Shown here piece by piece: positions 2,284-39,635 of a DNA stretch of 43,027 nt (positions within the stretch are counted from its first letter, which is position 1; each line of letters starts with the position of its first letter). Source of the stretch: a virus. The notes below the pieces were generated by a model. That model saw nothing but the letters and a program-made list of their open reading frames with translations. It was not told the DNA's origin and did not search any database. Made by a program: the position numbers and the translations under genes. The stretch spans positions 1 through 43,027 of IMG/VR virus record IMGVR_UViG_3300032080_000009. One strand, given 5' to 3'.

Positions 2284-2919
2284 ATGCCCGAAGATCGAGA
2301 GCGCCGAAACGCTCGACAGCGTGAGTACATGCGGCAGCGTCGGGCGGCCGGCATCGCTCATCGAAAAGACGAGCTCGCTTGCCCCCGTTGCGGCACGTCG
2401 AGACCGGTTCGGCGCGACAAGTCGCCCGTCTCTTGTCGTCCCTGCCAGCGTCGAGACGCGCTCGCCGCCGCCGTACAAGTGAGTGCGGAGGCTCGGCGGC
2501 TCGATCCTGCCGAGCGCCGCCGACGACGACGCGAGCGCAAGCGCGCAGCGCGTCGACCGTCGGGTTACGCCTTCGTCGCGCTGCCGCCCGAGCTGCGAGA
2601 GCGGCGTGCCCGAGCTCGTCATGCCGATCGGAAGGCCCGACGCCGGGCCCGCCTGCGCACTGCCTTCGTCGAGACCGTGCGTCGGGCCGAAATCTTCGCT
2701 CGCGATGGGCATCGCTGCCTGCTCTGCGGTGACCTGCTCGCCATGGCCGAGACCGTTCCGCACCCGCTTGCGCCTACCATCGATCACGTGCTGCCGCTCG
2801 CTCGGGGCGGCGCTCATGCCCCGTGGAACGTGCAAGCAGCACACTTTCTGTGCAACTCGCGTAAGCGCGACAATGTGCTAGCTTTCTGCTCGGGAGAGAG
2901 GACACCGACATGCCAGTAG
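2284..2919 (+). CDS. HNH endonuclease with an Arg-rich N-terminal region
   Basis: The C-terminal motif is DGHRCLLCG...TIDHVLPLARGG...NVQAAHFLCNSRK. Confidence 0.85.
   Translation: MPEDRERRNARQREYMRQRRAAGIAHRKDELACPRCGTSRPVRRDKSPVSCRPCQRRDALAAAVQVSAEARRLDPAERRRRRRERKRAARRPSGYAFVALPPELRERRARARHADRKARRRARLRTAFVETVRRAEIFARDGHRCLLCGDLLAMAETVPHPLAPTIDHVLPLARGGAHAPWNVQAAHFLCNSRKRDNVLAFCSGERTPTCQ
2876..2884 (+). promoter_or_regulatory. extended -10-like motif TGCTAGCTT inside the 3' end of the HNH gene, upstream of terS
   Basis: Near-identical copy of the 2266 motif, followed by GGGAGAGAGG and then ATG 2910. Confidence 0.4.
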
Positions 2920-3380
2920 CAGGCGCGAAGCCGAAGGCCGACCGGTCGCAGATCAGGCACCGAGTCGAAGCCGTACACGAATGGGTCGACGTCGAGAACG
3001 TGCCGTTCACCGACGCCCCGAAGCTGCCCGAGCGCGAGAAGCAGGTCTCATGGGCCGACGCCGGCGCGGTCGGCGGCTCGTGGCCGATCTCGACGCTCGC
3101 GTGGTGGCGGGACATCTCGTCGATGCCGCACGCGAAGCTCTGGACGAAGGCCGAGTGGCGCTTCGCCATCGACACGGCCGAGATCCACGCTCGCACGATG
3201 GAAGCGTGGCGCGGGTACACCGGGGCCGAGATTCGGGCCCGCGAGAAGCTGCTCGGAATGCTCGCCGACTACCGGCGCGACCTGCGTATCCGCTACGTCG
3301 AGCCGAAGGCGGCCGAAGAGCGCTCGAAGGCGGCCGATGACGCGAACGTCGTCTCGATCACGAGCCTGCGGGCGCTCTGA
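2910..3380 (+). CDS. terS: terminase small subunit (probable)
   Basis: 156 aa, first gene of the packaging operon. The segment WWRDISSMPHAKLWTKAEWRFAIDTAEIHA and the tail LRIRYVEP look like actinophage small terminases. This rests on position and recollected similarity only. Confidence 0.6.
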   Translation: MPVAGAKPKADRSQIRHRVEAVHEWVDVENVPFTDAPKLPEREKQVSWADAGAVGGSWPISTLAWWRDISSMPHAKLWTKAEWRFAIDTAEIHARTMEAWRGYTGAEIRAREKLLGMLADYRRDLRIRYVEPKAAEERSKAADDANVVSITSLRAL

Positions 3381-3643
3381 TGCGGCGCAAACTGCGCCCG
3401 GTCGCCGACGACGGGCTCGTGCCGCTCGCCGCGCTGCCGTCGGGCTCGGTCGCTGCAGAGCAACTCGCTCTCTACGGCGAGCCGCAGCGCGTCGAGCTCC
3501 CGCGCGAGCAGCGGCTCGCCGGCTCGTACACTCCGCCCGCGCCGCCACCGGCCGAGCTCGGCTTCGACCCCGAGAAATGGCGCTCGATGAACCGTGCTGA
3601 GCGCCGCGCCGTGCTGCGCTACGCGAAGCGGCAGCCGTCATGA
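3380..3643 (+). CDS. hypothetical protein
   Basis: TGATG stop/start overlap with terS. Codon position 3 is G/C-rich. Confidence 0.65.
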   Translation: MRRKLRPVADDGLVPLAALPSGSVAAEQLALYGEPQRVELPREQRLAGSYTPPAPPPAELGFDPEKWRSMNRAERRAVLRYAKRQPS

Positions 3644-3930
3644 CCGAGAGGCTCGGCGTCGGCGAGCTCACGATGCACTTCCGTCGCTTCGTCGACGGCA
3701 CGCCGCCTGCGCGGCAGCAGATTGAGTGCGGCGTGCGAGCGGGGTGCGTGACGGCTCGACTCGAAGACGTCACGTGCGCAGGGTGCAAGCTCGTCGCGGC
3801 CGAAGCCGACAAGCGGGCCGAGCACTGCGGCTGTCGTCGCGGCGACGTCCATCGGGGGCACGCGCGTGCAGCGATCGAGATCGCCGGCCGGCTGCCCGAA
3901 TTGCTCGATGAGCTGCGGGGGCGCTCATGA
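3640..3930 (+). CDS. hypothetical protein (Cys-containing)
   Basis: ATGA overlaps on both sides. Confidence 0.65.
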   Translation: MTERLGVGELTMHFRRFVDGTPPARQQIECGVRAGCVTARLEDVTCAGCKLVAAEADKRAEHCGCRRGDVHRGHARAAIEIAGRLPELLDELRGRS

Positions 3931-4088
3931 CCGCGCACGATTGGCGTCGCGGGCGCACGCGGCGATATCGCACGTTCGGCGGCGCGGTCGTCGACGTCGA
4001 GCTCGTTTGTCGCCGCTGCGGCACGACGAAGAGTGCGGGCGATGTCGTGCGAGAGGAATGCGAGCCGCCTGCCGAGTCGGCCGAATGA
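3927..4088 (+). CDS. hypothetical small protein (53 aa, contains CRRCG)
   Basis: ATGA overlap upstream (3927) and downstream (4085). It is absent from the ORF track because it is short. Confidence 0.5.
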   Translation: MTAHDWRRGRTRRYRTFGGAVVDVELVCRRCGTTKSAGDVVREECEPPAESAE

Positions 4089-5869
4089 CCGCCCCGACGA
4101 TCGAGCTCGACCCCGATGCCGGCGTCGAGATGCTGCCCGGCTACCGCGTCGATCCGTGGTACGGCACGACGGCATGGGTCACGCTCCCATGGCCCGAGAC
4201 GCAGGCCGAGAAAGACGCGCTCATCGAGAGCTCGCTCGGCCCGGGCGTCATCGATTGGGCGGAGGGGCGGGGCGAAGGGCCCGGGCTCGTCGACTACCAA
4301 AACGGCGGCCCTTGGACGTATACGGCCGGGCAGAAACGCTTTCTGATCCTTTGGTACGCCTACGACTCGCGCGGGCGCTTTCTCTACCGGCGCGGGGCGA
4401 AGCGCGGCGCGAAGGGCACGGGGAAAGACCCGTTCGGCGGCTCGGTCTGCCTCGCCGAGCTCGTCGGGCCGACGCAACTCGTGCTCGATGCCGACGGGTG
4501 GCACGGCGAGTCGCACGGAATGCCGCTCGTGCAGATCGCGAGCAACTCAGAGGCGCAGTCGAAAGACGTGCTGCGCGTCGCTAACGCGATGTGCTCGAAA
4601 GACTTTCGCGCGTACTACGATCTCGACTGCGGCGAGACGCGCACGATCGTCAAGGGCACGGGCGGTCGCATCGAAGTGCTCACGGCGTCGGAATCGAGCG
4701 CCGAAGGCGACCCGGCGACCTTCGTCTTTCTCAACGAGACGCACCATATGACCGAATCGAGCGGCGGTCACCGGGTCGCGAAAGTCGTGCGACGCAACGT
4801 GGGCAAGTCGCCGGCTCATCTGCAGGCGCGCACGCTCGACGGCACGAATGCGCACATGCAAGGCGGCGACTCGATCGCCGAGCGCACGTACGTCGCGTGG
4901 CAGGCGCAGGTGGCGGGCAAGGCGGCGCGGCGAGACATTCTGTACGACTCGATCGAAGCGCCGCCGACGACTGACCTGTTCAACGACGCGAGCCGGCAGG
5001 CCGGCCTTCGTGCCGCGTACGCCGATGCCCATTGGGCCGACCTTGAGCGGCTTGACGGCGAGGTGCTCGACCCCGAGACGCCGGTCGCCGACTCGATTCG
5101 GTACTACCTCAACGGGCTCGCGGCGGCCGAAGACGCATGGGTCGACCCGCGCAAGATCTCGGCGCTCGCGCGCCCGCAGGTGCGCATCGCCGACGGCGAG
5201 CAGGTCGCGATGTTTCTCGACTGCTCGAAGTCGGGCGACGTGACCGCGCTCGTCGCGTGCCGGCTCTCCGACGGCTTCGTGCAGCGGCTCGGCGCATGGG
5301 TCCCACCGCGCGGCACGGCTGGGAAGGGGTGGCTCGTCGACCGCGAGCAGGTCGACGGCGCGGTGCGCGGCGCATGGGCGAAATACAAGGTCGTATGGTT
5401 CGGCGTCGACCCGTCGCCGGCGAAGGACGACGAGACCGAGCTCAACTATTGGATGCCGCTCGCCGACGCATGGCACCGCGACTTCAGTAAGCGGCTCAAA
5501 GTGTGGGCTACCGGCGGCGCGAAAGTCGGGCACTCGGTGCTCTTCGACATGCGGATCAAGACGCTCGGCGGCGCGGCGCGTAACGCGCAATTCGTGCAAG
5601 CGGCGATGCAGACGCAGGACGATATCGACGAGACGGGCACGTTCCTATGGGATGGCGACCCCCTCATGCTCGCGCATTTCACGCAGGCGAAAGGCCGGCC
5701 GACGCCGTGGGGCCGCACGCTCGGCAAGGTGACCCGCGACTCGTCGAAGCACGTCGACCTCGCCGTTTCTGCAGTCGGGGCCCGCATGGGCAGGCGTATC
5801 GTGTTGAATAGCGGCAAGGTGCGGGCGCGGTCGGCACGAGCAGGCGGCACGGGGAAGGCGGTTTTCTAG
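4085..5869 (+). CDS. terL: terminase large subunit
   Basis: 594 aa from the internal ATG 4085, which is coupled by ATGA. It has a Walker A-like GAKGTGKD, FVFLNETHH, and a C-terminal nuclease-sized domain. It lies directly upstream of portal. Confidence 0.9.
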   Translation: MTAPTIELDPDAGVEMLPGYRVDPWYGTTAWVTLPWPETQAEKDALIESSLGPGVIDWAEGRGEGPGLVDYQNGGPWTYTAGQKRFLILWYAYDSRGRFLYRRGAKRGAKGTGKDPFGGSVCLAELVGPTQLVLDADGWHGESHGMPLVQIASNSEAQSKDVLRVANAMCSKDFRAYYDLDCGETRTIVKGTGGRIEVLTASESSAEGDPATFVFLNETHHMTESSGGHRVAKVVRRNVGKSPAHLQARTLDGTNAHMQGGDSIAERTYVAWQAQVAGKAARRDILYDSIEAPPTTDLFNDASRQAGLRAAYADAHWADLERLDGEVLDPETPVADSIRYYLNGLAAAEDAWVDPRKISALARPQVRIADGEQVAMFLDCSKSGDVTALVACRLSDGFVQRLGAWVPPRGTAGKGWLVDREQVDGAVRGAWAKYKVVWFGVDPSPAKDDETELNYWMPLADAWHRDFSKRLKVWATGGAKVGHSVLFDMRIKTLGGAARNAQFVQAAMQTQDDIDETGTFLWDGDPLMLAHFTQAKGRPTPWGRTLGKVTRDSSKHVDLAVSAVGARMGRRIVLNSGKVRARSARAGGTGKAVF

Positions 5870-7360
5870 GTGGCGATCGAGTCCCGCGGCGCGGTCGTTG
5901 CGCTCGCAAAAGAGCTGCACGCGACACATCTGCGCGAGCTCGAAGAGCTCGACGTGCTGCGGCGCTACGTGACCGGCAAGCAGGCCTTGCCGCTCGTCGT
6001 CCCCCGTGACGCGCCCCGCGAGGTGCAGGAGATGGCGCGCATTTCGCGGATCAACATCATCTCGATTGTCGTGAACGCGCTCGTCGAGAGTCTCTACGTC
6101 GACAACATGCGTGCTCTCGACGACGCACCCGCGCCCGAGCTCGACCCGGAAGATCTCGACCCCACGCAGCTCGACGAGCCGGGCGACGGCGAGCAGGTCG
6201 TCTCGCGCATCTGGGAAGTCTGGCAGCGCAACAAGCTCGACCGGGGGCAGAGTGGGCTCTACCGCGCCGTCTTCACGTACGGATGGGCGTACATGGTCGT
6301 CACGAATGGCGACCCCCTGCCCGTCGTGCGACCGGTCTCGCCGCGCAGCATCACTGCGCTCTACGACGACGACCCCGATTGGCCCGTCTTCGCGCTCGAA
6401 AAGCGGCGAAACGGCAGGTGGTCGCTCTACGACGAGACGCACGTCTACTCGCTCGGCCGCGACGAAAAGGGCGACTGGACGGTGCTCGGCGAGCGCCCGC
6501 ACGGGCTCACCTACTGCCCGGTCATCCGCTACGTCGACGCCGACGATCTCGATCTCGACAACGAGCCCGAGTTCTCGCCGGCCGCGTACGCGCGGGGCGT
6601 GCAGTCGAGCATCGTCGCCGGGCAGGTCGCGCCGCTCATGACGCTGCAGGATCAGGCTGACGTTACGACGTTCTCACTGCGGGCGGCCGAGTGGTATACG
6701 GCCTTCCGGCAGCGCTGGATCGTCGGGTGGACGCCGGAGAGCAAGGCGGCGAAAGTCGCGGCCGGCGCGTCGCAGATGTGGACCTTCGACGCCGACCCCG
6801 ACGAAGTGAAGCTCGGCGAGTTCGGCGAGACGACGCTCGAAGGCTACTTGCGCTCGCGCGACGCGACGGCTCGCTTCGCGGCGACGCTCTCGCAGACGCC
6901 CGTGCATGAACTGATCGGCGAGCTCGTGAACCTCTCGGCCGAAGCGCTCGCGGCGGCCGAAGCCGGCCGTGACCGCAAGGTCGACCTGCGCAAAACGGGC
7001 AACGGTGAGAGCCACGAGCAGACGGCCGGCGCGATCGGCGACCTGCTCGGGCTCGACGTGCCCGATGACATCGAAGTCGTCTGGCGCGACACAAGCGCCC
7101 GAGCCTTCGGTGCGATCGTCGACGGGCTCGGCAAGCTCGCGCAGATGCTCGGCGTGCCGCCCGAAGCGCTCTGGGAGCGCATTCCGGGCGCGACCCGGCA
7201 GGAGATCGCCCGGTGGAAGCAGCTCGCCGCGAAGGGCGACTCGATGGCGGCGCTTACCCGGCTGCTCGATCAGCAGGCCGGCGAGACGCCGCCGACCGGC
7301 GCGCCCGGCGAGCGCACGTCACCCGGCGGCGTCATCCTGCCGCCCGGCGTGGAAGTCTGA
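5870..7360 (+). CDS. portal protein
   Basis: 496 aa, GTG start abutting the terL stop. Size and position fit, and the N-terminus LRELEELDVLRRYVTG is portal-like. Confidence 0.88.
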   Translation: MAIESRGAVVALAKELHATHLRELEELDVLRRYVTGKQALPLVVPRDAPREVQEMARISRINIISIVVNALVESLYVDNMRALDDAPAPELDPEDLDPTQLDEPGDGEQVVSRIWEVWQRNKLDRGQSGLYRAVFTYGWAYMVVTNGDPLPVVRPVSPRSITALYDDDPDWPVFALEKRRNGRWSLYDETHVYSLGRDEKGDWTVLGERPHGLTYCPVIRYVDADDLDLDNEPEFSPAAYARGVQSSIVAGQVAPLMTLQDQADVTTFSLRAAEWYTAFRQRWIVGWTPESKAAKVAAGASQMWTFDADPDEVKLGEFGETTLEGYLRSRDATARFAATLSQTPVHELIGELVNLSAEALAAAEAGRDRKVDLRKTGNGESHEQTAGAIGDLLGLDVPDDIEVVWRDTSARAFGAIVDGLGKLAQMLGVPPEALWERIPGATRQEIARWKQLAAKGDSMAALTRLLDQQAGETPPTGAPGERTSPGGVILPPGVEV

Positions 7361-7362
7361 CC

Positions 7363-8148
7363 GTGGCGACGACGCCGCTCGGGGCCCGTCTGACGACCGC
7401 GTACCGGGCCGAGCAGCTCGCCGCACAGGCGGGCTCGCTGCGGCAACTCGTGCTGCTCTGGCGGGCGGTCGACGTGACGAACCTCTCCGAGACGATCGAC
7501 GTCTTCGCCCGGGCGGCGGCGCTGCTCGGCGGGCAGGGCTTCGACGCGAGCGCGATCTCGGCCGCGCAGTACGTGACCGAGTTCCGCGAAGCCGAGCTCG
7601 GCGTCGGCATCGAAGCGCGCATCGCGCAGCGGCCGGCGCAGGCGTACATCGCCGGGCAGATTCGCGGCGCGGCGCTCTCGGGCATCATCGACGCGCGTAA
7701 GGCGGGTAAGTCGATCGACTTCGCCGGCCGCAACGGGCTCGTCAAGGCGATCGGCAGCTTCGGCCGCATCATGCTCGGCGGCGGCCGGCAGACGATCACG
7801 CGCACCGTTGCCGTCGACCGCAAGGCGCTCGGATGGATGCGCGCGACGAGCGGCTCACCGTGCACGTTCTGCCGCATGATCGCGAGTCGCGGCGCGCAGT
7901 ACAAGACCGAGCGCTCGGCGTCATTCCAACCGCATGACCACTGCGGCTGTACGCCCGAGCCGCTCTACTCCGACGCCGACGAGACGCTCGGTGCCGCCGC
8001 GCAGGGTGCGAAATTCAAGGGCGAATACGACTCGGCGCAGGCATGGGCCCGCTCGAATGGCACAATGTCTCAAGGTACGAGCAATAATGCACTCAACAAC
8101 TACCGACGATGGCTCGCCGCAGGCCGGCCGGGAGCGGGTAGCAAGTGA
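7363..8148 (+). CDS. MuF-like minor capsid / head morphogenesis protein
   Basis: GTG 7363 follows just after the portal stop. The C-terminal motif is GSPCTFCRMIASRGAQYK...FQPHDHCGCTPEP. Confidence 0.8.
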   Translation: MATTPLGARLTTAYRAEQLAAQAGSLRQLVLLWRAVDVTNLSETIDVFARAAALLGGQGFDASAISAAQYVTEFREAELGVGIEARIAQRPAQAYIAGQIRGAALSGIIDARKAGKSIDFAGRNGLVKAIGSFGRIMLGGGRQTITRTVAVDRKALGWMRATSGSPCTFCRMIASRGAQYKTERSASFQPHDHCGCTPEPLYSDADETLGAAAQGAKFKGEYDSAQAWARSNGTMSQGTSNNALNNYRRWLAAGRPGAGSK

Positions 8149-8163
8149 CGGGAGCAACCCGGT

Positions 8164-8790
8164 ATGCCTACTGACGACGATGGCGACGACAAGACCGAAA
8201 CGACGTTCACCCGAGCGCAGATGGCCCGAGAGGTCAATCGGCAGGTGCGCGAGAAGGTCTCGGCGGCGCTGGCGGAATACGGCGACCTCGAAGAGCTCAA
8301 GCGCAAGGCGTCCGAAGCTGACAAGCAGAAAACGCAGCTCGACAAGGTTTCCGAGCAGCTCGACGCGCTGACGAAGCGTGCCGAAGTTGCTGAGATCGAG
8401 AACGATCGGCGCAAGGTCGCCGACGAGCTCGGGCTCACTCCGAAGGAAGCGAAGCGACTGCGAGGCAAGACGTACGCCGAGCTCAAGGCCGACGCCGATG
8501 AGCTTGTCGACGATCTCGGCATCGACGTCAAGGCGCGCAAGAACGGTAAGACGAAGACGAAGGGCAAGACGACCGACGACGGCGACGCTGCCGACGACGA
8601 GTCGTCGAGCGACGACGGCGACACGGACGACGACGGCGACAACGACGAGCAGCAGACCGCACCCGAGCGGCGGACGGCCTCACGGCGGCGACCGCGCGAG
8701 CTGCGTTCCGGCGCTCCCATGTCGGCCGGCGACGACCGCGACGCGAGCGACCCGCTTAAGCTCATCGAGAACGTGCCGCGAGGCAGGTAG
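8164..8790 (+). CDS. capsid scaffolding protein
   Basis: 208 aa, highly charged and coiled-coil-like (EELKRKASEADKQKTQLDKVSEQLDAL) with an acidic tail. It lies immediately upstream of the capsid gene. Confidence 0.7.
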   Translation: MPTDDDGDDKTETTFTRAQMAREVNRQVREKVSAALAEYGDLEELKRKASEADKQKTQLDKVSEQLDALTKRAEVAEIENDRRKVADELGLTPKEAKRLRGKTYAELKADADELVDDLGIDVKARKNGKTKTKGKTTDDGDAADDESSSDDGDTDDDGDNDEQQTAPERRTASRRRPRELRSGAPMSAGDDRDASDPLKLIENVPRGR

Positions 8791-31095: not shown

Positions 31096-33846
31096 GTGTC
31101 TGATACTACATATAGCGGGCCCTACGCACGAGCCGCGCATATGTACCGTGCCGCAGGTTGGCATGGCACTCTGCCGCTCGGGGCCCGCCCCGGTAAGAAG
31201 TACCCTCCGCCGCACGGATGGACCGGGCACGGCGCACCGATGCCGTCGGCCGCAGACGTCGAATCGTGGCGTGAGACACACGGGAATCGGAACATCGGCC
31301 TACGCCTGCCGCCCGGCGTGCTCGGGCTCGACGTCGACGCCTACGGCAGCAAGCGCGGCGGCGAGACGCTCGCAGCGCTCATCGCCAAGCACGGCGAGCT
31401 GCCCCCGACGTGGATCACGACCGCCCGCACCGACGGCGTCTCGGGCATCCGGCTCTTCCGCGTGCCCGAGCAGCTCGACGGCCGGCCGATCAACTGGCCC
31501 GGCGAAGCGGGCACGCACATCGAGATCATCCAAACCGGCCACCGGTACGCGGTCGTCTGGCCGAGCACGAATCCCGAAGCCGACGGCGCGACGTACGAGT
31601 GGCGGCACGAGCGCTACGAAGTCGAAGAGACCGGCTTGCCACGCCCCGAGCACATGGCCGAGCTGCCCGACGCATGGGTGCGCGGGCTCGCGCTCGCCTA
31701 TGACCGGACCGAGAAAGTCGATCTCAATCAGGGCGCGATGTCCGCATGGTGGCGCGCGCTGCGGCCGGGGCCGACGTGCCGAGTCGTCGAGACCGTGCTC
31801 GCGAAGGCGCTCGCCGACCTGCGCAACGTCGACGGCTCGCGGCACGAGAGCACCCGCGACGCCGCTGCCGCGCTCGCCCGCTTTGGCGGCGAAGGGCATC
31901 GCGGCGTCATCGACGCGTTGCAGCAGCTCGCGGGCGGCTTCGAGCAGGCGGTCGGCAGCGAGCGGGTCAAGAATGGCGAGTTCGATCGCCTGCTCGCCGG
32001 CGCGGTCAAGCTCGCCGCCCGCGACAACCCGACGCCGCGACAGCACTGCGAGCACGATGCCGCGACGCCGGTCGTCATCGACGCCGAGCTCGCAGCGGCT
32101 TTTTCGGTGCCCGAGCCGGCAAGCGTGCCGATCCCTACGGCACTCGACTCGGGCGAACAGAGGACAGCCGTTGACGCTGTGATTGCCGATCTCGCCGACG
32201 TGCCGCCTGAGCAGCTCGACGACCGCGTGCGCGAGATCGCCGCCGAGCTCGTCGCGACCGGCATCGGCGAAGCCGAGCTACAGCGAGCCCGCTCTGCGCT
32301 CACGGTCAAGTCTGGCGGGTCAAGCGTCCGGCTCGGCGAGTGGGACGCGATCGTGCGCGATGCTCGCAAGCAGCTCAAAGAGGCAGCGAAGGCGGCGGCC
32401 GAAGTCGGCGCACGCATCGCCGCGCAGCAATCCGTCGCCGCCAAGAGAGAGGCAGGTCAACTCTTGCCACCGCCGCACGCTCCGATCGACGTCGCCCGGG
32501 AGCTCGCGGCGTCGCTGCCCGCGCCCGCGAAGTGGTGGCGGGGCGACTTCTACCTATGGGACGGCACGCGTTACCGCGTCTGGCGGGACGAAGCCGTTGA
32601 CAACTGGCTCTACGGCCGTACGGCCGACGCTTACTTCGAGGGCAGCGGCGAAGACGCAGGTCCGAAGCCGTGGCGGCCGAATGAGTCGCGCATCACCGGT
32701 GTCTCGCACGCGCTCTCCCGTGGCGTGCTCTACCGGCCGAGCGAGCTTGACGTCGACGACTCGCCGGCGCAGGTCGCATGCGCCAATGGCGTCTACGACG
32801 TGCCGACAGCGACCCTGCTCGCGCACGACCCCGAGCGATTCAATCTGCAATCGGTGCCGTTCCCCTACGACGCGAGCGCCGATGCGCCGACGTGGCGCGC
32901 CTTTCTTGACGACACGCTGCCGCGAGACGCACAGCTATTCCTACAGGAATGGTTCGGTTACGTGCTCTCGGGGCGCACCGATCTTGAGAAGATGGCGAAC
33001 CTTGTCGGCCCGCCTCGCAGCGGAAAGGGCACGATCGCGACCGTGCTCGAAGCGCTCATCGGCGGCGAGAACGTCGCGAGCCCGAGCATGCCGTCGCTCG
33101 TCGGGACGTTCGGCGAGCAGCCGCTCATCGGTAAGACGCTCGCGATCTTCTCGGACATCTCGTGGTCGCACCGCGACATCGTGACCGGCGTCGAGATCCT
33201 CAAAGCGATCAGTGGGCAGGACACACGCGACGTCAACCGCAAAAATCGCGAGATCTGGCACGGCCGGCTCGGCGTCCGTTTCATGATCATGGGAAACGAC
33301 ATGCCGAAGTTCACCGACGCGAGCGGCGCGCTCGCGGGCCGCATGGTGCATGTCCAGTTCACCCGGTCGGTTGCCGGCCGCGAAGACCCGACGCTCAAAC
33401 CGCGCCTACTCGAAGAGCTTCCCGGCATGCTCAATTGGGCGCTCGAAGGCTTGCGGCGGCTCGGGGCGCAAGGACGCTTCACGGTCCCGCAGACGAGCGC
33501 CGAGCTCGCCGCAGAGGTGCGGCGGCAGCAGTCGCCCGTACAGGGCTTTCTCGACGACTGCTGCGCGTTCTCCGAGAACGCCAACCCGGCCCCGCTCGAT
33601 GAGCTCTACCCCGTTTACCGGGCCTGGGCGAAGGCGGCCGACGTCGAGCACCTGCTCGACCGCGAGCGTTTCTCTCGGGCGCTCTCGTCGGCCGGTCTGA
33701 CCGTCGAGCGCAAGATGATCAACGGCGTACGAGCGCGTCGCGTGCTCGGCATCACCCCGGCTCGCGTCTCCACGTGGTCGGCGCTACTCAACCCCAACCT
33801 GCCGCAGGTGACCCCCATCGACCCCCCGGAGGGATTCCTCCCATGA
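31096..33846 (+). CDS. bifunctional DNA primase-polymerase / D5-type SF3 helicase
   Basis: 916 aa. The N-terminal prim-pol pattern is GWHGTLPL...KYPPPHGWTG...LGLDVDAY...IEIIQTGHRYAVVWPS. The C-terminal P-loop is GPPRSGKGT. GTG start after GGGAGAG. Confidence 0.85.
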   Translation: MSDTTYSGPYARAAHMYRAAGWHGTLPLGARPGKKYPPPHGWTGHGAPMPSAADVESWRETHGNRNIGLRLPPGVLGLDVDAYGSKRGGETLAALIAKHGELPPTWITTARTDGVSGIRLFRVPEQLDGRPINWPGEAGTHIEIIQTGHRYAVVWPSTNPEADGATYEWRHERYEVEETGLPRPEHMAELPDAWVRGLALAYDRTEKVDLNQGAMSAWWRALRPGPTCRVVETVLAKALADLRNVDGSRHESTRDAAAALARFGGEGHRGVIDALQQLAGGFEQAVGSERVKNGEFDRLLAGAVKLAARDNPTPRQHCEHDAATPVVIDAELAAAFSVPEPASVPIPTALDSGEQRTAVDAVIADLADVPPEQLDDRVREIAAELVATGIGEAELQRARSALTVKSGGSSVRLGEWDAIVRDARKQLKEAAKAAAEVGARIAAQQSVAAKREAGQLLPPPHAPIDVARELAASLPAPAKWWRGDFYLWDGTRYRVWRDEAVDNWLYGRTADAYFEGSGEDAGPKPWRPNESRITGVSHALSRGVLYRPSELDVDDSPAQVACANGVYDVPTATLLAHDPERFNLQSVPFPYDASADAPTWRAFLDDTLPRDAQLFLQEWFGYVLSGRTDLEKMANLVGPPRSGKGTIATVLEALIGGENVASPSMPSLVGTFGEQPLIGKTLAIFSDISWSHRDIVTGVEILKAISGQDTRDVNRKNREIWHGRLGVRFMIMGNDMPKFTDASGALAGRMVHVQFTRSVAGREDPTLKPRLLEELPGMLNWALEGLRRLGAQGRFTVPQTSAELAAEVRRQQSPVQGFLDDCCAFSENANPAPLDELYPVYRAWAKAADVEHLLDRERFSRALSSAGLTVERKMINGVRARRVLGITPARVSTWSALLNPNLPQVTPIDPPEGFLP

Positions 33847-34412
33847 CGCAAACGATTCCCCGTGGCGTATGGCTCGGCGCAAGCGTGCGGCTCGGCCGCC
33901 CGGTTTCGACCATCGATCCCTACCCGCACGTCTGCGGCACCGATGCGAATCCGCAGGCGTGGCGGCGAGATTGCCCCGCCTGCGCAGAGGGGCGACCGCT
34001 CGAAGCCGCCGAGCGCCCGGCCCCGAACCTGCGTCGCGGGGAAGGCGAAGTGCCGATCGCCAATTTCGCTCCGGGGTCCACCGGCCCGCAACGCGCTCCG
34101 CTCGATCCCCCGTGCCCCCCGGGACGGTATGCGTTCCTGCGTGGCGATAAGCGCTTTTTCTACGTCGTCGAGCAGGGGTGGGCGTTGGGCCGGTTGACCG
34201 TGCGAGAGCAGATCACGGACAACGTCGTGCAGGCTCGACACCCGAAGGGAGAGATCCTTAGCCGGATCATGCCGGACGTCGAGCGAGCCGGGCTCAACTA
34301 TGCCGAGTGGCTCGGTCGCTGTCGCCGCTGTGGCCGGGCGCTGACCGATAACGGCAACCCCTACCTCTCGCGAGGCTTTGGGCCCGATTGCGGTCACGAG
34401 CTCTTCGGCTGA
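33843..34412 (+). CDS. hypothetical protein with a C-terminal zinc-ribbon-like motif (DUF6011-like)
   Basis: ATGA overlap. The C-terminus is GRCRRCGRALTDNGNPYLSRGFGPDCG. Confidence 0.65.
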   Translation: MTQTIPRGVWLGASVRLGRPVSTIDPYPHVCGTDANPQAWRRDCPACAEGRPLEAAERPAPNLRRGEGEVPIANFAPGSTGPQRAPLDPPCPPGRYAFLRGDKRFFYVVEQGWALGRLTVREQITDNVVQARHPKGEILSRIMPDVERAGLNYAEWLGRCRRCGRALTDNGNPYLSRGFGPDCGHELFG

Positions 34413-34424
34413 CAAATCGCTCAT

Positions 34425-34459
34425 AGCGCCCCCGTACGGCTTCGGCCTACGGGGGCGCT
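34425..34459 (+). terminator. GC-rich hairpin AGCGCCCCCGTA...TACGGGGGCGCT
   Basis: 12-bp perfect outer stem, 3 further base pairs, and a TTCG loop. It lies 13 nt after the stop codon. Confidence 0.65.
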
Positions 34460-34469
34460 CGCGTTGCGC

Positions 34470-34565
34470 TGCCCGGTAGTGCCCGGTAGCTGCCCGGTTG
34501 ATTGCCCGGTACCCTGCCCGGTTATTTCCGCTGGTCAGACCGCCCTTTACCCGGTTACCCGGTTA
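34470..34565 (+). repeat. left iteron array: 5 x TGCCCGGTW and 2 x ACCCGGTTA
   Basis: Copies are at 34470, 34480, 34491, 34503 and 34515 (10-12 bp spacing), and at 34549 and 34557. Confidence 0.85.
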
Positions 34566-34712
34566 CTTGTAGAGATCGCGTCTATAGAGAAGTAGAAAAT
34601 AAAGTAGAGTGTTAGGTATACCTAAGTATATTTTTCAGAGTGCCGCAGAGTGAGCCACGATTGCGCAGCGAACCGGGCAACCGGGCAGCACCCCTCCCCA
34701 CCAGCGGAAATA
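34523..34712. repeat. 13-bp perfect inverted repeat TATTTCCGCTGGT (34523-34535) / ACCAGCGGAAATA (34700-34712)
   Basis: Exact reverse complements. Their midpoint falls within 1 bp of the central palindrome. Confidence 0.85.
34612..34625. repeat. 14-bp perfect palindrome TTAGGTATACCTAA in the centre of an AT-rich stretch of about 75 bp (34567-34640)
   Basis: Read directly. The surrounding stretch is far more AT-rich than the rest of the genome. Confidence 0.85.
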
Positions 34713-34752
34713 GCCTGCTCGTACCGGGCAGCGGCTACCGGGCAACTGGGCA
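34671..34752 (-). repeat. right iteron array, in inverted orientation: WACCGGGCA x4 plus AACTGGGCA
   Basis: Copies are at 34671, 34679, 34722, 34736 and 34744. They are reverse complements of the left-arm units. Confidence 0.8.
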
Positions 34753-34765
34753 GCGAGCCGACGTC

Positions 34766-34794
34766 GGACTTTTATTACGTGTCGAAGCAAGTAT
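34766..34794. repeat. left copy of a 29-bp inverted repeat (GGACTTTTATTACGTGTCGAAGCAAGTAT)
   Basis: It matches the reverse complement of 35101-35129 at 26 of 29 positions. Confidence 0.8.
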
Positions 34795-34804
34795 GTATGG
34801 AAAG

Positions 34805-34813
34805 TTATCCACA
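34805..34813 (+). promoter_or_regulatory. perfect DnaA-box consensus TTATCCACA
   Basis: Exact 9-mer next to the iteron region. It is AT-rich, so a chance match is unlikely in this GC-rich genome. Confidence 0.45.
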
Positions 34814-34840
34814 GTCGGGCCCCCAAACCTGCTCGGTTCC

Positions 34841-34849
34841 TGCTATACT
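34841..34849 (+). promoter_or_regulatory. extended -10-like motif TGCTATACT; leaderless start at 34856
   Basis: The sequence reads CCTGCTCGGTTCCTGCTATACT-N6-ATG. Confidence 0.55.
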
Positions 34850-34855
34850 TACTGC

Positions 34856-35041
34856 ATGAGGAAATACGAACTGGTAGAGGTCGAAGCGGACGGAACCGAA
34901 GGCGGACGCGAGACGCTGGTCGCCACCGGAACCCTCCGGAAGATGACGGCGGCGCTGCAGGAGAGCATCGAAGAGGCCATCGAGGATTACGACGAGCGCG
35001 GCTACGACTGGCCGAGCTACCGGGTGCAGCCCGCGCAGTAA
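34856..35041 (+). CDS. small acidic protein (61 aa: MRKYELVEVEADGTEGGRE...)
   Basis: It has its own promoter motif and its own terminator. The longer track ORF from 34640 runs through the non-coding iteron region. Confidence 0.55.
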   Translation: MRKYELVEVEADGTEGGRETLVATGTLRKMTAALQESIEEAIEDYDERGYDWPSYRVQPAQ

Positions 35042-35069
35042 GGCCCCGGGGCCCCCGCGAGGGGCCCTT
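35040..35069 (+). terminator. GC hairpin (GGGCCCC / GGGGCCC core) followed by a T-containing tract
   Basis: Read directly from the sequence. It overlaps the stop codon of the 61-aa gene. Confidence 0.5.
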
Positions 35070-35100
35070 CCGTTTACGCGGCTTTTGATACGTTTCAATT

Positions 35101-35129
35101 ATACTTGTATCGACAAGTAATAAAAGTCC
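35101..35129. repeat. right copy of the 29-bp inverted repeat; contains the 6-4-6 palindrome ACTTGTATCGACAAGT
   Basis: Its reverse complement matches 34766-34794 at 26 of 29 positions. It lies about 30 nt upstream of ATG 35159. Confidence 0.8.
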
Positions 35130-35158
35130 CCCTCCGACCACGCGATACGCTGCTCGGC

Positions 35159-35458
35159 ATGGGAGAGCAGACCCGCGTCACCTTCGACGCGAAGACGATC
35201 AACGATCTCGGCAAGAGTCTCGGCCGCGCCATCGCCGAGCAGCTCGCCGCGAAGCACGAGCCCGCACCCGAGCCGCCGCCGGCCGTCGACGCCCCGCTCG
35301 CCGTGCACATCGAGCCGTGGCACATCTTCGACCCCCGTAGGCAGACCATCGTCGCGGCCTACGTCGACGACGCGCAGCAGCAGCGATGGGTGCCGGTCGC
35401 CGACGAGCTCGAAGTGCCGAAGGCCTGGCGCAAGCTCTTCCGGCAGCGTGCCGCATGA
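35159..35458 (+). CDS. hypothetical protein (99 aa)
   Basis: Starts at internal ATG 35159 (MGEQTRV...). TACGCT lies 7 nt upstream, which may make it leaderless. Confidence 0.6.
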   Translation: MGEQTRVTFDAKTINDLGKSLGRAIAEQLAAKHEPAPEPPPAVDAPLAVHIEPWHIFDPRRQTIVAAYVDDAQQQRWVPVADELEVPKAWRKLFRQRAA

Positions 35459-38972: not shown

Positions 38973-39243
38973 TCCGTTCCAACTCTTCGAGCAGGCCGAC
39001 GCCGGCCGGCAAGAGTCCCTGCGCGTCATCTGGCCCGAGCTGCACGCGATGCTCGCTCGTGAAGACGAGCCGGCGTCGGAGCGTACGACCCGCTGCGCGG
39101 TCTACGCGACGCACGAGATCGGTACGCACGCGGTCGCCGTCGGCCGGCTCGTCGCGGACGGGCCCCCGGCGTGCGCCGAGTGCGTCGCGAAGGCAGCGAC
39201 CCGCGAAGGCGGGTATCCCCTCACCCGAGAGGCAAGACGATGA
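38965..39243 (+). CDS. hypothetical protein (92 aa)
   Basis: ATG 38965 lies in frame within track ORF 38935..39243. Confidence 0.55.
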   Translation: MADPFQLFEQADAGRQESLRVIWPELHAMLAREDEPASERTTRCAVYATHEIGTHAVAVGRLVADGPPACAECVAKAATREGGYPLTREARR

Positions 39244-39635
39244 ACGTCACCATCCTCCGTTTCTTCACGCTCATCGCCGACGTGCTGCTGCGTCTGCGGT
39301 ACGAGCGCGGCGAGTCGCAGGTCGCCGTCGCGGCCCGGGCCGGGCTCGCCAATCCGCAGATCTCGAAGTACGAGCGAGGCGTCGTCACGCCCGATCTGTC
39401 GACGACGCTGCAGCTCTTGCACGCCTACGGGCAGCATCTCGTCGTGATGCCGGCCCCGCTCGCCGAGACGCTCCCCGAGCGCGACGTGGTCGTCGCGGCG
39501 GCGTCGCGCTGGTATGCCATCGGCCCGTCGAGTAACCCGCACGAGCTCATCGCGGCCGTCGAGAAGCTCGTCGCGGCCGAGCTGCGGCACGGTGGCGGCG
39601 CACACGCTCGACTCGTCGAAGGCGGCGACCGATGA
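39240..39635 (+). CDS. helix-turn-helix (XRE/Cro-CI type) DNA-binding protein
   Basis: ATGA overlap. It has LRLRYERGESQVAVAARAGLANPQISKYERGVVTPDLSTTLQLLHAYG. Confidence 0.75.
   Translation: MNVTILRFFTLIADVLLRLRYERGESQVAVAARAGLANPQISKYERGVVTPDLSTTLQLLHAYGQHLVVMPAPLAETLPERDVVVAAASRWYAIGPSSNPHELIAAVEKLVAAELRHGGGAHARLVEGGDR

Follow-up and report, generated by a model that had tools for sequence, protein, structure and literature searches.

Gene content and repeat architecture of the locus

The locus belongs to a 43,027-bp stretch of DNA from an uncultured virus, the whole of which is referred to here as the window. Its features are as follows.

31096..33846, + strand: predicted initiator gene, 916 aa (PrimPol, D5_N, SF3 helicase, predicted C-terminal winged helix)
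33843..34412, + strand: gene of a 189-aa protein ending in a DUF6011-like zinc ribbon, located between initiator gene and putative origin
34425..34459, + strand: GC-rich hairpin that closes the replication operon, with perfect 12-bp arms (inverted repeat 100% complementary) and without a T-tract
34470..34523, + strand: left outer iteron array, five direct TGCCCGGTW copies
34525..34538, + strand: left conserved box TTTCCGCTGGTCAG, which matches TTTCCGCWGSTCAG without mismatch and precedes the inner doublet by 23 bp
34548..34564, + strand: left inner iteron doublet, two copies of TACCCGGTT 8 bp apart
34565..34651, no strand: AT-rich core, predicted DNA-unwinding element, with A-tract GTAGAAAATAAAG and palindrome TTAGGTATACCTAA
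34652..34665, + strand: second conserved box GAGCCACGATTGCG at the right core edge (family consensus GAGCACGATAGG, from the alignment of relatives)
34671..34687, - strand: right inner iteron doublet, two copies of TGCCCGGTT 8 bp apart, mirroring the left doublet
34697..34710, - strand: right inverted conserved box TTTCCGCTGGTGGG, 2 mismatches
34722..34752, - strand: right outer iteron array, three inverted copies
34805..34813, + strand: match to the DnaA-box consensus TTATCCACA, judged to have arisen by chance and excluded from the element
34826..34855, + strand: promoter-like motif pair, AACCTGCTCGGTT then CCTGCTATACTT, directly 5' of the ATG of the next gene

The intergenic gap of 443 bp (34413-34855) is free of GC3 frame bias, in agreement with the first-pass annotation, which had taken it to be non-coding. 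That annotation had also placed repeats, an inverted repeat, a palindrome and a DnaA-box match here, and all of their coordinates were reproduced. On the + strand TGCCCGGTW starts at 34470, 34480, 34491, 34503 and 34515, a spacing of 10, 11, 12 and 12 bp, and is followed by TACCCGGTT at 34548 and 34556 (equivalent to ACCCGGTTA at 34549 and 34557). Five inverted copies had been claimed at 34671-34752; four are exact (34671, 34679, 34722 and 34736) and the one at 34744 (AACTGGGCA) carries a single mismatch. Orientation is strict, with 7/7 left copies on the + strand and 5/5 right copies on the - strand, flanking the lowest-GC spot of the window. The innermost 8-mer matches, at 34556 on the left and 34672 on the right, lie 116 bp apart from start to start.

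The iteron repeats are genuine and greatly exceed what chance would give. Every one of the nine exact TGCCCGGTW matches that the 43,027-bp window contains lies inside 34470-34744 (275 bp); none was found outside this interval, and the window holds no second iteron cluster. With up to one mismatch allowed, TGCCCGGTW occurs 35 times in the window against 11.9 expected, and CCCGGTW occurs 24 times against 6.3; neither count was reached in any of 100 shuffles. A count of this kind had been proposed as a check with the first-pass annotation, and over the window it shows clustering above the compositional expectation.

The 80-bp stretch from 34561 has 34% GC, the minimum of the whole window (mean 69%), confirming the reported AT-rich stretch in a GC-rich genome. 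It contains the 14-bp palindrome TTAGGTATACCTAA (34612-34625). The arms of the 13-bp inverted repeat (34523-34535 / 34700-34712) pair perfectly and lie inside a 16-nt pair that is 94% complementary. A symmetry centre shared to within 1 bp had been claimed, and we find centres at 34617.5 for the inner doublets, 34617.5 for the inverted repeat and 34618.5 for the palindrome. Folded as single-stranded DNA, 34462-34760 gives -77.9 kcal/mol (z = -8.6).

The hairpin at 34425-34459 is likely a terminator of actinobacterial type, protecting the origin against read-through, and comparable hairpins lie 5' of the array in three relatives (L002, L003 and L004; L numbers denote the relatives introduced below). 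A scan of 34300-35200 for the intrinsic terminator consensus gave no match, the hairpin escaping it because it has no T-run. Over the same interval no consensus sigma-70 promoter was matched; both negative results say little for a phage of a high-GC actinomycete. The promoter-like pair at 34826-34855 precedes a 61-aa gene (34856-35041). Matches to the motif AACCTGCTAGGTT are scattered over the window (15, against 2.1 expected), mostly ahead of gene starts, and the motif also stands ahead of the downstream genes in L002, L003 and L004; the pair is part of the downstream transcription unit and lies outside the origin. Rfam and tRNA scans of the window returned no match, hence no known RNA is present here. 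Cumulative GC skew has no inflection at 34.5 kb and is therefore uninformative for origin position.

The primase-helicase and the adjacent small gene

The 916-aa product joins a PrimPol primase to an SF3 helicase, which is followed by a predicted winged helix at the C-terminus. Its N-terminal PrimPol contains the motif GLDVDAY and its SF3 helicase the Walker A motif GPPRSGKGT. Pfam matches were obtained to Prim-Pol (PF09250, 1.3e-19), D5_N (9.9e-12) and DUF5906 (6.5e-13), and the protein scored 175.7 bits against TIGR01613, 'phage/plasmid primase, P4 family' (cutoff 108.7). In the PDB, the family profile matched only PriRep5 of SaPI5 (7OLA/7OM0; E 1.7e-11, aa 551-848), to which the 916-aa protein has ∼ 19% sequence identity. 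An AF2 model (pLDDT 91.3) has winged-helix topology at its C-terminus: model residues 284-345 (aa 823-884) form a strand, two helices and a β-hairpin, and the predicted winged helix spans about aa 823-888. The best Foldseek match of this model is 7OLA_C (E 5e-14, TMq 0.69), and alignments are 40-70 columns longer to PriRep5 chains with a built CTD than to those without. By profile and model comparison, the helicase half is homologous to the self-loading initiator-helicase PriRep5. No phage DNA polymerase was found among the 30 proteins scanned.

The start of the 189-aa gene overlaps the helicase stop as ATGA. Its product matches Pfam DUF6011 at E 2e-4, below the cutoff. At this place L001, L003 and L004 lack the gene, and L002 has a truncated form; judged from these loci, the gene is an insertion that lies outside the conserved module and is dispensable. 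The first-pass annotation had named the DUF6011-like protein as a candidate for binding the repeats. We rejected it as an unlikely iteron binder because L001, L003 and L004 lack the gene between helicase and array and nevertheless keep the array.

Repeat arrays beside related helicase genes

Searches of deposited phages with 33800-35200 (megablast) and 34400-34900 (blastn) gave no match, and the comparison was therefore made through the protein. The family has 491 homologues at E ≤ 1e-10, many of them in Micromonospora and Streptomyces genomes; a protein search of genome contigs gave no confirmed relative. We compared the loci of 27 non-redundant relatives of the 916-aa gene, with 20-90% identity in the ATPase core, using an unbiased scan in which the top-ranked 7-mer cluster of each whole locus was placed relative to the end of the helicase gene. 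Array and dyad layout are kept past the helicase gene, with differing words, in 23 of the 27 relatives, where the top cluster lies -400 to +900 bp from the gene end. The chance expectation is 5.4, and 0/200,000 simulations reached 23. For 17/27 the cluster starts within -80 to +150 bp. The four exceptions to top rank (L001, L013, L026 and L028) have arrays that are visible by eye. In the window the array starts 624 bp past the helicase stop, an offset due to the one inserted small gene; likewise it does not follow immediately in L002, L009, L017 and L018.

Across the family the dyad layout is repeated with at least 14 unrelated iteron words. The 8-9-bp inner doublet occupies the same place in L001-L004, L009, L017 and L018, and the innermost left and right 8-mers start 112-122 bp apart in L001-L004. 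The AT-rich core of relatives also has a conserved A-tract, GTAAAAAAAT; a markedly AT-rich centre is missing in some distant relatives (L019, L021, L024 and L029). The central palindrome had been presented as part of the origin; it is present, but it is specific to this phage and not a family-wide feature, relatives having other inverted repeats or the A-tract alone at this place. The 13-bp inverted repeat proved real and perfect, and what had been overlooked behind it is a family-conserved element: the repeat represents the two copies of a 14-bp box, TTTCCGCWGSTCAG (34525-34538 and 34697-34710). Conservation of this box extends from soil actinophages as far as Mycobacterium phage Barnyard, and its distance to the inner doublet stays at 22-23 bp.

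The relatives compared include cultured Barnyard (NC_004689), in which 12 copies of TGTCCCCT, an AT-rich core and a perfect box are present and the array falls in the last 330 bp, and a Micromonospora tarensis prophage of the same layout. NadineRae, a Gordonia phage with 28.6% identity across its tblastn match, was considered as a cultured model and set aside; it has no array downstream of gene 52, which adjoins a convergent gene.

Downstream genes differ between loci, those of the window, L001/L005, L002/L003, L004 and Barnyard being unrelated. L009 and L018 share the iteron of the window and have 77% winged-helix and 71-74% ATPase identity to it, whereas L002/L003 have a different iteron, with 70% winged-helix and 78% ATPase identity. 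L005 keeps the PrimPol part and has a different helicase, C-terminal domain and iteron. These comparisons suggest that similarity of the winged helix tracks the iteron word better than similarity of the ATPase core does, a pattern drawn from few independent lineages and partly confounded by phylogeny.

Interpretation as a probable replication origin

We consider it probable that 34470-34752 is where an uncultured tailed actinophage starts its replication, in an origin whose construction resembles that of Staphylococcus aureus pathogenicity islands (SaPIs). This reading is supported by the comparison of relatives and by the homology of the predicted initiator. The first-pass annotation had argued for an origin from iterons, an AT-rich unwinding element, a DnaA box and the adjacent primase-helicase; of these, all but the DnaA role are retained, and the layout in 23/27 relatives and the homology to a SaPI initiator are added to them. 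By the published definition, a SaPI ori consists of 6-12 iterons that directly follow rep and surround an AT-rich centre, with two or more on either side and the two sides pointing in opposite ways; the winged-helix domain within the Rep C-terminal domain binds them, and specificity is set by a word that varies from element to element (PMC9371898). The present locus resembles this design in having an SF3 helicase initiator with a C-terminal winged helix (here predicted), which is fused to a primase in SaPI5 as well as here, in the position of the origin downstream of the initiator gene, and in oppositely pointing iterons, at least two per side (here 7 on + and 5 on -), around an AT-rich centre. 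It differs in belonging to an actinophage of a high-GC host rather than to a Firmicute satellite, in iterons of 8-10 bp as opposed to 5-6 bp, in the two-tier architecture of outer array and inner 8-bp doublet, and in the boxes TTTCCGCWGSTCAG and GAGCACGATAGG, which are missing from the SaPI description in PMC9371898. A further difference is that the primase domain here is an archaeo-eukaryotic PrimPol (PF09250).

Other systems share parts of this arrangement. Besides ori, satellite phage P4 depends on crr, a further cis site kilobases away that has the same iterons; no such bipartite arrangement was found here, the 43-kb window having no second iteron cluster. The window protein passes the NCBIfam P4-family primase model TIGR01613, and P4 alpha is likewise a multifunctional primase-helicase, whose C-terminal winged helix binds origin iterons; the P4 primase, however, is of the Toprim (DnaG-like) type and not a PrimPol (PMC4234260). 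ORF904 of the Sulfolobus plasmid pRN1 and the Bordetella phages BPP-1/BIP-1 have the same domain order of PrimPol, SF3 helicase and winged helix, and an origin just 3' of the gene with long stem-loop potential, the z at the present locus being -8.6; their stem-loops are described without iterons (PMC4234260), whereas the arms at the present locus are made of repeated words that appear to change with the protein. Sfi21-type origins of Streptococcus thermophilus may lie downstream of the primase gene. The SF3 initiators papillomavirus E1 and SV40 large T form two hexamers on a dyad-symmetric origin, in which inverted recognition sites adjoin an AT-rich, easily melted segment. They belong to eukaryotic viruses, have no fused primase, and bind the origin through a domain other than a winged helix, placed on the N-terminal side of the helicase.

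Four other explanations were weighed. It is very unlikely that the repeats form a transcriptional hub, with operators for a phage repressor or activator, such as the HTH protein encoded at 39171-39635, controlling the operon from 34856. The region does lie between a terminator-like hairpin and a promoter-like motif, multiple dyad-symmetric operators are common in phage switches, and an HTH_3/HTH_31 protein is encoded in the window. Yet the array travels across the family with the helicase gene and not with any downstream gene; the genes downstream are unrelated between loci, and in Barnyard the array adjoins the genome end. The repeat word also appears to track the winged helix of the helicase, the HTH gene is 4.4 kb distant, the 110-bp AT-rich spacer between mirror arrays is unlike an operator layout, and the promoter-like motif (34826-34855) is outside the dyad. 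The position in Barnyard, within 330 bp of the genome end, would suit a packaging (pac/cos) site, and centromeres and pac sites are likewise repeat arrays of protein-binding words. A partition (parS-like) or packaging function is nonetheless scarcely credible: no ParA/ParB family match was found among the 30 proteins scanned across the window, the small terminase (2910-3380) and portal genes are ∼ 31 kb away, and the arrays of all other relatives are internal and tied to the helicase gene.

The very strong folding energy (z = -8.6) invites the idea that only structure matters, as a long hairpin, cruciform or structured RNA in which the 'iterons' are simply paired arms. Proteins of the pRN1 type (PrimPol/SF3/winged helix) are reported with such a stem-loop origin downstream of the gene (PMC4234260). 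We judge this highly unlikely, since a hairpin does not require several direct copies of one word, repeated in an arm at one-turn spacing. Copy numbers are unequal between the arms (7 vs 5), the position at which the left word of L002 (TGTCCCGG) departs from its right word (TGGCCCGG) is uncompensated, both orientations occur inside an arm in Barnyard and L005, and Rfam gave no match. Cruciform extrusion may instead aid melting, and the structural reading may be more a component of the best explanation than its rival. The exact 9-mer TTATCCACA, ∼ 50 bp from the right array, had suggested the classic iteron-plasmid layout, in which host DnaA opens the AT-rich core. The match is present, but its role as an origin element is not supported. 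It is a single box at chance level (with up to one mismatch, at least one match arises in 63/100 shuffles), none was found in the relatives L001-L005, and the symmetric unit does not include it, the core being ∼ 150 bp away. It also has the E. coli-type consensus, and high-GC actinobacteria prefer the form TTGTCCACA. SaPI-type Reps, moreover, melt their origins without accessory factors (PMC9371898). A DnaA-dependent origin is therefore extremely improbable, and DnaA would have no demonstrable part in initiation here.

In the SaPI-like origin that we favour, the winged helix would read the 8-9-bp iterons. Each of the two oppositely oriented sets, consisting of an outer array with ∼ 11-bp (one-turn) spacing and a tight inner doublet 8 bp apart, would recruit and orient one helicase hexamer beside the 34%-GC core. 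The two assemblies would melt this core, helped by the A-tract and the cruciform-prone dyad symmetry, and the helicases would then travel outward, 3' to 5'. The tethered PrimPol domain would lay the first primers, which the host replisome would extend. The iteron word would set origin specificity, co-diversifying with the winged helix, and the 14-bp box TTTCCGCWGSTCAG would be a second, invariant contact.

Lytic replication origins of actinobacteriophages are largely uncharted; the one paper on actinophage origins that we found treats prophage origins in cluster A mycobacteriophages, of the RepA and RNA-based kinds (PMC7157519). A dyad iteron array just past the helicase stop could serve to predict the origin in a large family of actinomycete phages and integrated elements. 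The family would constitute a natural library of at least 14 pairs of winged helix and iteron word in which DNA-recognition specificity and origin incompatibility can be studied, and cultured Barnyard, with the array in its last 330 bp, offers an experimental handle. Gene-plus-origin cassettes could seed new replicons for actinomycete genetics.

For the conserved 14-bp box, a speculative and, in our judgement, rather unlikely reading is a two-part code in which the variable iterons would be an 'address' for the winged helix and the invariant TTTCCGCWGSTCAG box a 'start' for the conserved module. A candidate reader of the box would be the fused PrimPol domain, with the box as a site-specific start of primer synthesis; site-specific initiation has reportedly been seen with the PrimPols of pRN1 and NrS-1. 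In L005 the PrimPol domain and the box are kept and the helicase and the iterons are both swapped, a pattern that fits such a code.

A repeat array in a non-coding gap

The window is a tailed-phage genome. Besides a small terminase, its structural side encodes an SPP1-type portal, a minor tail/tape-measure protein and an M15 peptidase; the rightward early region encodes an exonuclease, a methyltransferase, an SF2 helicase and an HTH protein. No DNA-level similarity to deposited phages was found. The repeats occupy a 443 bp gap without coding (34413–34855), in which GC3 frame bias is absent.

Genes referred to in the text
2910–3380, small terminase
31096–33846, primase-helicase gene (916 aa), upstream of the array
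33843–34412, 189-aa gene with a DUF6011-like C-terminus, left neighbour of the gap
34856–35041, 61-aa gene, right neighbour of the gap

Exact TGCCCGGTW occurs nine times in the 43,027 bp window, each time within 34470–34744, which confirms the clustering proposed in the first-pass annotation; the coordinates given there were correct wherever checked. Two copies of TACCCGGTT and one variant, AACTGGGCA, bring the iterons to 12 sites, seven on the + strand (34470–34564) and five on the − strand (34671–34752). The shorter CCCGGTW was observed 24 times against 6.3 expected (0/100 shuffles reached 24). Between the arms lies the GC minimum of the genome (34% in the 80 bp from 34561; genome mean 69%). 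The annotated 13 bp inverted repeat, 14 bp palindrome and common centre are all present, and the single-stranded fold of 34462–34760 gave z = −8.6. A GC-rich hairpin at 34425–34459 probably marks the end of the replication operon, directly before the proposed origin, and the promoter-like motifs at 34826–34855 are part of the next transcription unit, downstream of it.

A separate motif, AACCTGCTAGGTT, is scattered through the window (15 matches with ≤ 3 mismatches, 2.1 expected; 0/100 shuffles reached 15), at positions that include 547, 27318 (−), 30625 (−), 30670, 34826, 36447 (−), 37241 and 41750. Most copies overlap gene starts or sit just upstream, and the motif also precedes genes in three loci with relatives of the primase-helicase gene (L002, L003 and L004). 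We regard it as a candidate promoter of the phage or a candidate signal for leaderless starts.

Across the family, arrays lie near the helicase gene end

Relatives of the primase-helicase were drawn from viral contigs, metagenomes, GenBank phages and bacterial genomes, and their loci labelled L001, L002 and so on. For each locus we located the most clustered strand-collapsed 7-mer, a measure chosen without reference to the finding. Of 27 non-redundant loci, 23 had this cluster within −400 to +900 bp of the end of the helicase gene (5.4 expected by chance; 0 of 200,000 simulations reached 23). Different lineages have unrelated genes 3′ of the array, and Mycobacterium phage Barnyard has the genome end there. 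The linkage of the array is therefore with the helicase gene and not with what follows.

Alignment with the relatives showed that the layout is kept and that the words differ by lineage. From the left, an outer array of 3–5 copies at ∼11 bp spacing, a ∼30 bp spacer and a tight doublet (8–9 bp apart) lead to a core of ∼112–122 bp, usually AT-rich and with an A-tract, beyond which doublet, spacer and array are mirrored. The central palindrome of the window is not conserved: L002 and L003 carry another inverted repeat in the core (AAAATCCA ... TGGATTTT) and further relatives the A-tract only.

Table. Iteron words and the loci that carry them
TGCCCGGT: window, L001, L009, L018
TACCCGGT: L017
GTCCCGGT: L002, L003
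GTCCCGCTG: L004
ATCCTGGACA: L019
CCTGTCC(C): L020, L025
GGTGGCAA: L021
CCTGCAC: L022, L027
ACCCGGCACA: L023
CGGGTCC: L024
CCTGGTCC: L029
CTGACTACA: L031
ACCCTCGCA: L011
TGTCCCC: L005, Barnyard
CTGCCCGGGTC: Micromonospora tarensis prophage

No word is shared more widely among the compared origins than a 14 bp box with the consensus TTTCCGCWGSTCAG. What had been annotated as a perfect 13 bp inverted repeat consists of two copies of this box.

34525–34538, left copy, 0 mismatches
34697–34710, right copy, inverted, 2 mismatches

With ≤ 2 mismatches allowed, 29 matches to the box lie in the 29 kb around helicase ends and 7 in the other 216 kb, so that it is enriched 31-fold near these ends. The left copy has a constant orientation, and in the window, L001–L004 and L018 its start precedes the inner doublet by 22–23 bp. 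Barnyard, too, has the TTTCCGCAGGTCAG box, in perfect form and inverted. The right edge of the core carries another conserved box, GAGCACGATAGG.

In Barnyard (NC_004689, ∼70468–70746; L038 5452–5730), the last ∼330 bp hold 12 TGTCCCCT/AGGGGACA iterons in dyad layout with an AT-rich core, downstream of primase gp108 and gp109; we found no description of this array in the searchable literature. L040, a non-phage integrated element of Streptomyces marincola (CP084541.1), encodes Prim-Pol and D5_N/SF3 in two genes, with an HTH_17 gene after them. Since six GAGTCGCG copies (5410–5490) overlap its helicase gene 3′ end, the rule that iterons come after the helicase gene seems to reach integrative elements of Streptomyces. 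L004 matches residues 3–900 in tblastn (6001–8741), yet its longest ORF starts at 6672 (689 aa); a frameshift, a misassembly or a division into primase and helicase could be the cause.

The primase-helicase and its iteron word

The 916-aa protein comprises Prim-Pol, D5_N and DUF5906 (SF3 helicase) domains with intact DxD (GLDVDAY) and Walker A (GPPRSGKGT) motifs, and passes TIGR01613 ('phage/plasmid primase, P4 family'). Its closest cultured relatives, at ∼28–30% identity, are proteins of Barnyard and Gordonia phages. Among solved structures, a profile built from the window protein plus four relatives matched only 7OLA/7OM0 (E 1.7e-11, aa 551–848), which is PriRep5 of the staphylococcal pathogenicity island SaPI5 (PMC9371898). 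The AlphaFold2 model, restricted to aa 540–916 (81 homologues, pLDDT 91.3), places a strand, two helices and a β-hairpin at aa ∼823–884, a winged-helix topology. Its top Foldseek matches were PriRep5 chains, with the longest alignments where the C-terminal domain was built, followed by ASFV PrimPol, poxvirus D5/E5 proteins and NrS-1. By profile and model, the protein is homologous to SaPI Rep, and its C-terminus is predicted to form a winged helix.

Divergence is faster in the winged-helix segment than in the ATPase core: relatives with a core ∼50–65% identical to the window's have only 20–40% identity in that segment. L009 and L018 (core 71–74%, winged helix 77%) have the same iteron as the window; L002 and L003 (core 78%, winged helix 70%) have TGTCCCGGT. 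A natural domain swap is seen in L005 (IMGVR_UViG_3300046799_000095, 5971–8472), a chimeric 833-aa primase-helicase. Its PrimPol part (aa 1–349) shares 56% identity with the window protein, its helicase and C-terminal DNA-binding region are unrelated to the window's, and its iteron differs too (TGTCCCC, downstream, in palindromic pairs, GGGGACATGTCCCC). These few sequence contrasts are suggestive of a winged helix that may set iteron specificity.

A probable SaPI-like replication origin

SaPI origins have six to twelve iterons immediately downstream of rep, an AT-rich centre with half of the iterons per side, and at least two per side in opposite directions (PMC9371898). All of these sequence-level features are found in the window element, which, on wholly computational evidence, is probably a replication origin. 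Neither the TTTCCGCWGSTCAG nor the GAGCACGATAGG box is mentioned in the accessible text of that description; both are features of the window family. In SaPIs a winged-helix domain within the Rep C-terminal domain recognizes the iterons, one hexamer is thought to load on each side, two in all, and neither accessory factors nor ATP are thought necessary for loading and melting (PMC9371898). By analogy, winged helices would bind the iterons and two hexamers of opposite orientation would assemble on the two arms. The AT-rich core would then melt, perhaps helped by cruciform extrusion of the dyad, given its strong single-stranded fold. The fused PrimPol would prime and a host polymerase would presumably elongate, since no phage DNA polymerase was found among 30 proteins scanned.

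The other readings fit less well. Repeats serving as regulatory operators are contradicted by an array that follows the helicase gene and not any regulated gene. Against a partition site, the scan of 30 proteins detected no Par genes; against a packaging site, the terminase module lies 31 kb away. A pure hairpin, as proposed for the pRN1 and BPP-1 origins (PMC4234260), leaves unexplained the several direct copies per arm, their unequal numbers between arms, an uncompensated left/right difference in L002 and the mixed orientations in Barnyard and L005. Nor is a DnaA-driven origin supported: the annotated DnaA box (TTATCCACA) is the single match in the window, lies beyond the symmetric unit, is absent from L001–L005 and is at chance level (63/100 shuffles gave at least one match with ≤ 1 mismatch).

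We read the element as a SaPI/P4-style initiator-helicase origin. Its family comprises phages and integrated elements of actinomycetes, for which the searchable literature contains no description of such an origin. To a specialist in replication the layout as such would be no surprise. The element is of value for the general rule, a set of presumably cognate protein/word pairs, a test case in culture (Barnyard) and the conserved 14 bp box.

The DUF6011-like protein had been suggested as a partner of the array, but its gene cannot be required, because L001, L003 and L004 lack it at the corresponding position. In L020 (∼2255–2756) and L029 (∼3596–4178) no stop codon interrupts the helicase frame across the iteron array, and its end is a common Cys-rich motif (APCxxC...GFGH...C...PPW) that resembles the zinc-ribbon C-terminus of the DUF6011-like gene. 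On one side or the other, these origins seem to come with a small zinc-ribbon gene. In L028 (metagenome contig Ga0065707_10004562, 3506–3565), five perfect copies of the DnaA-box consensus (TTATCCACAG/CTGTGGATAA; one on +, four on −) stand in tandem at ∼11 bp spacing, 2.2 kb downstream of the helicase and directly upstream of a small-terminase- or HTH-like gene; they could form a DnaA-titrating or terminase-recognition array.
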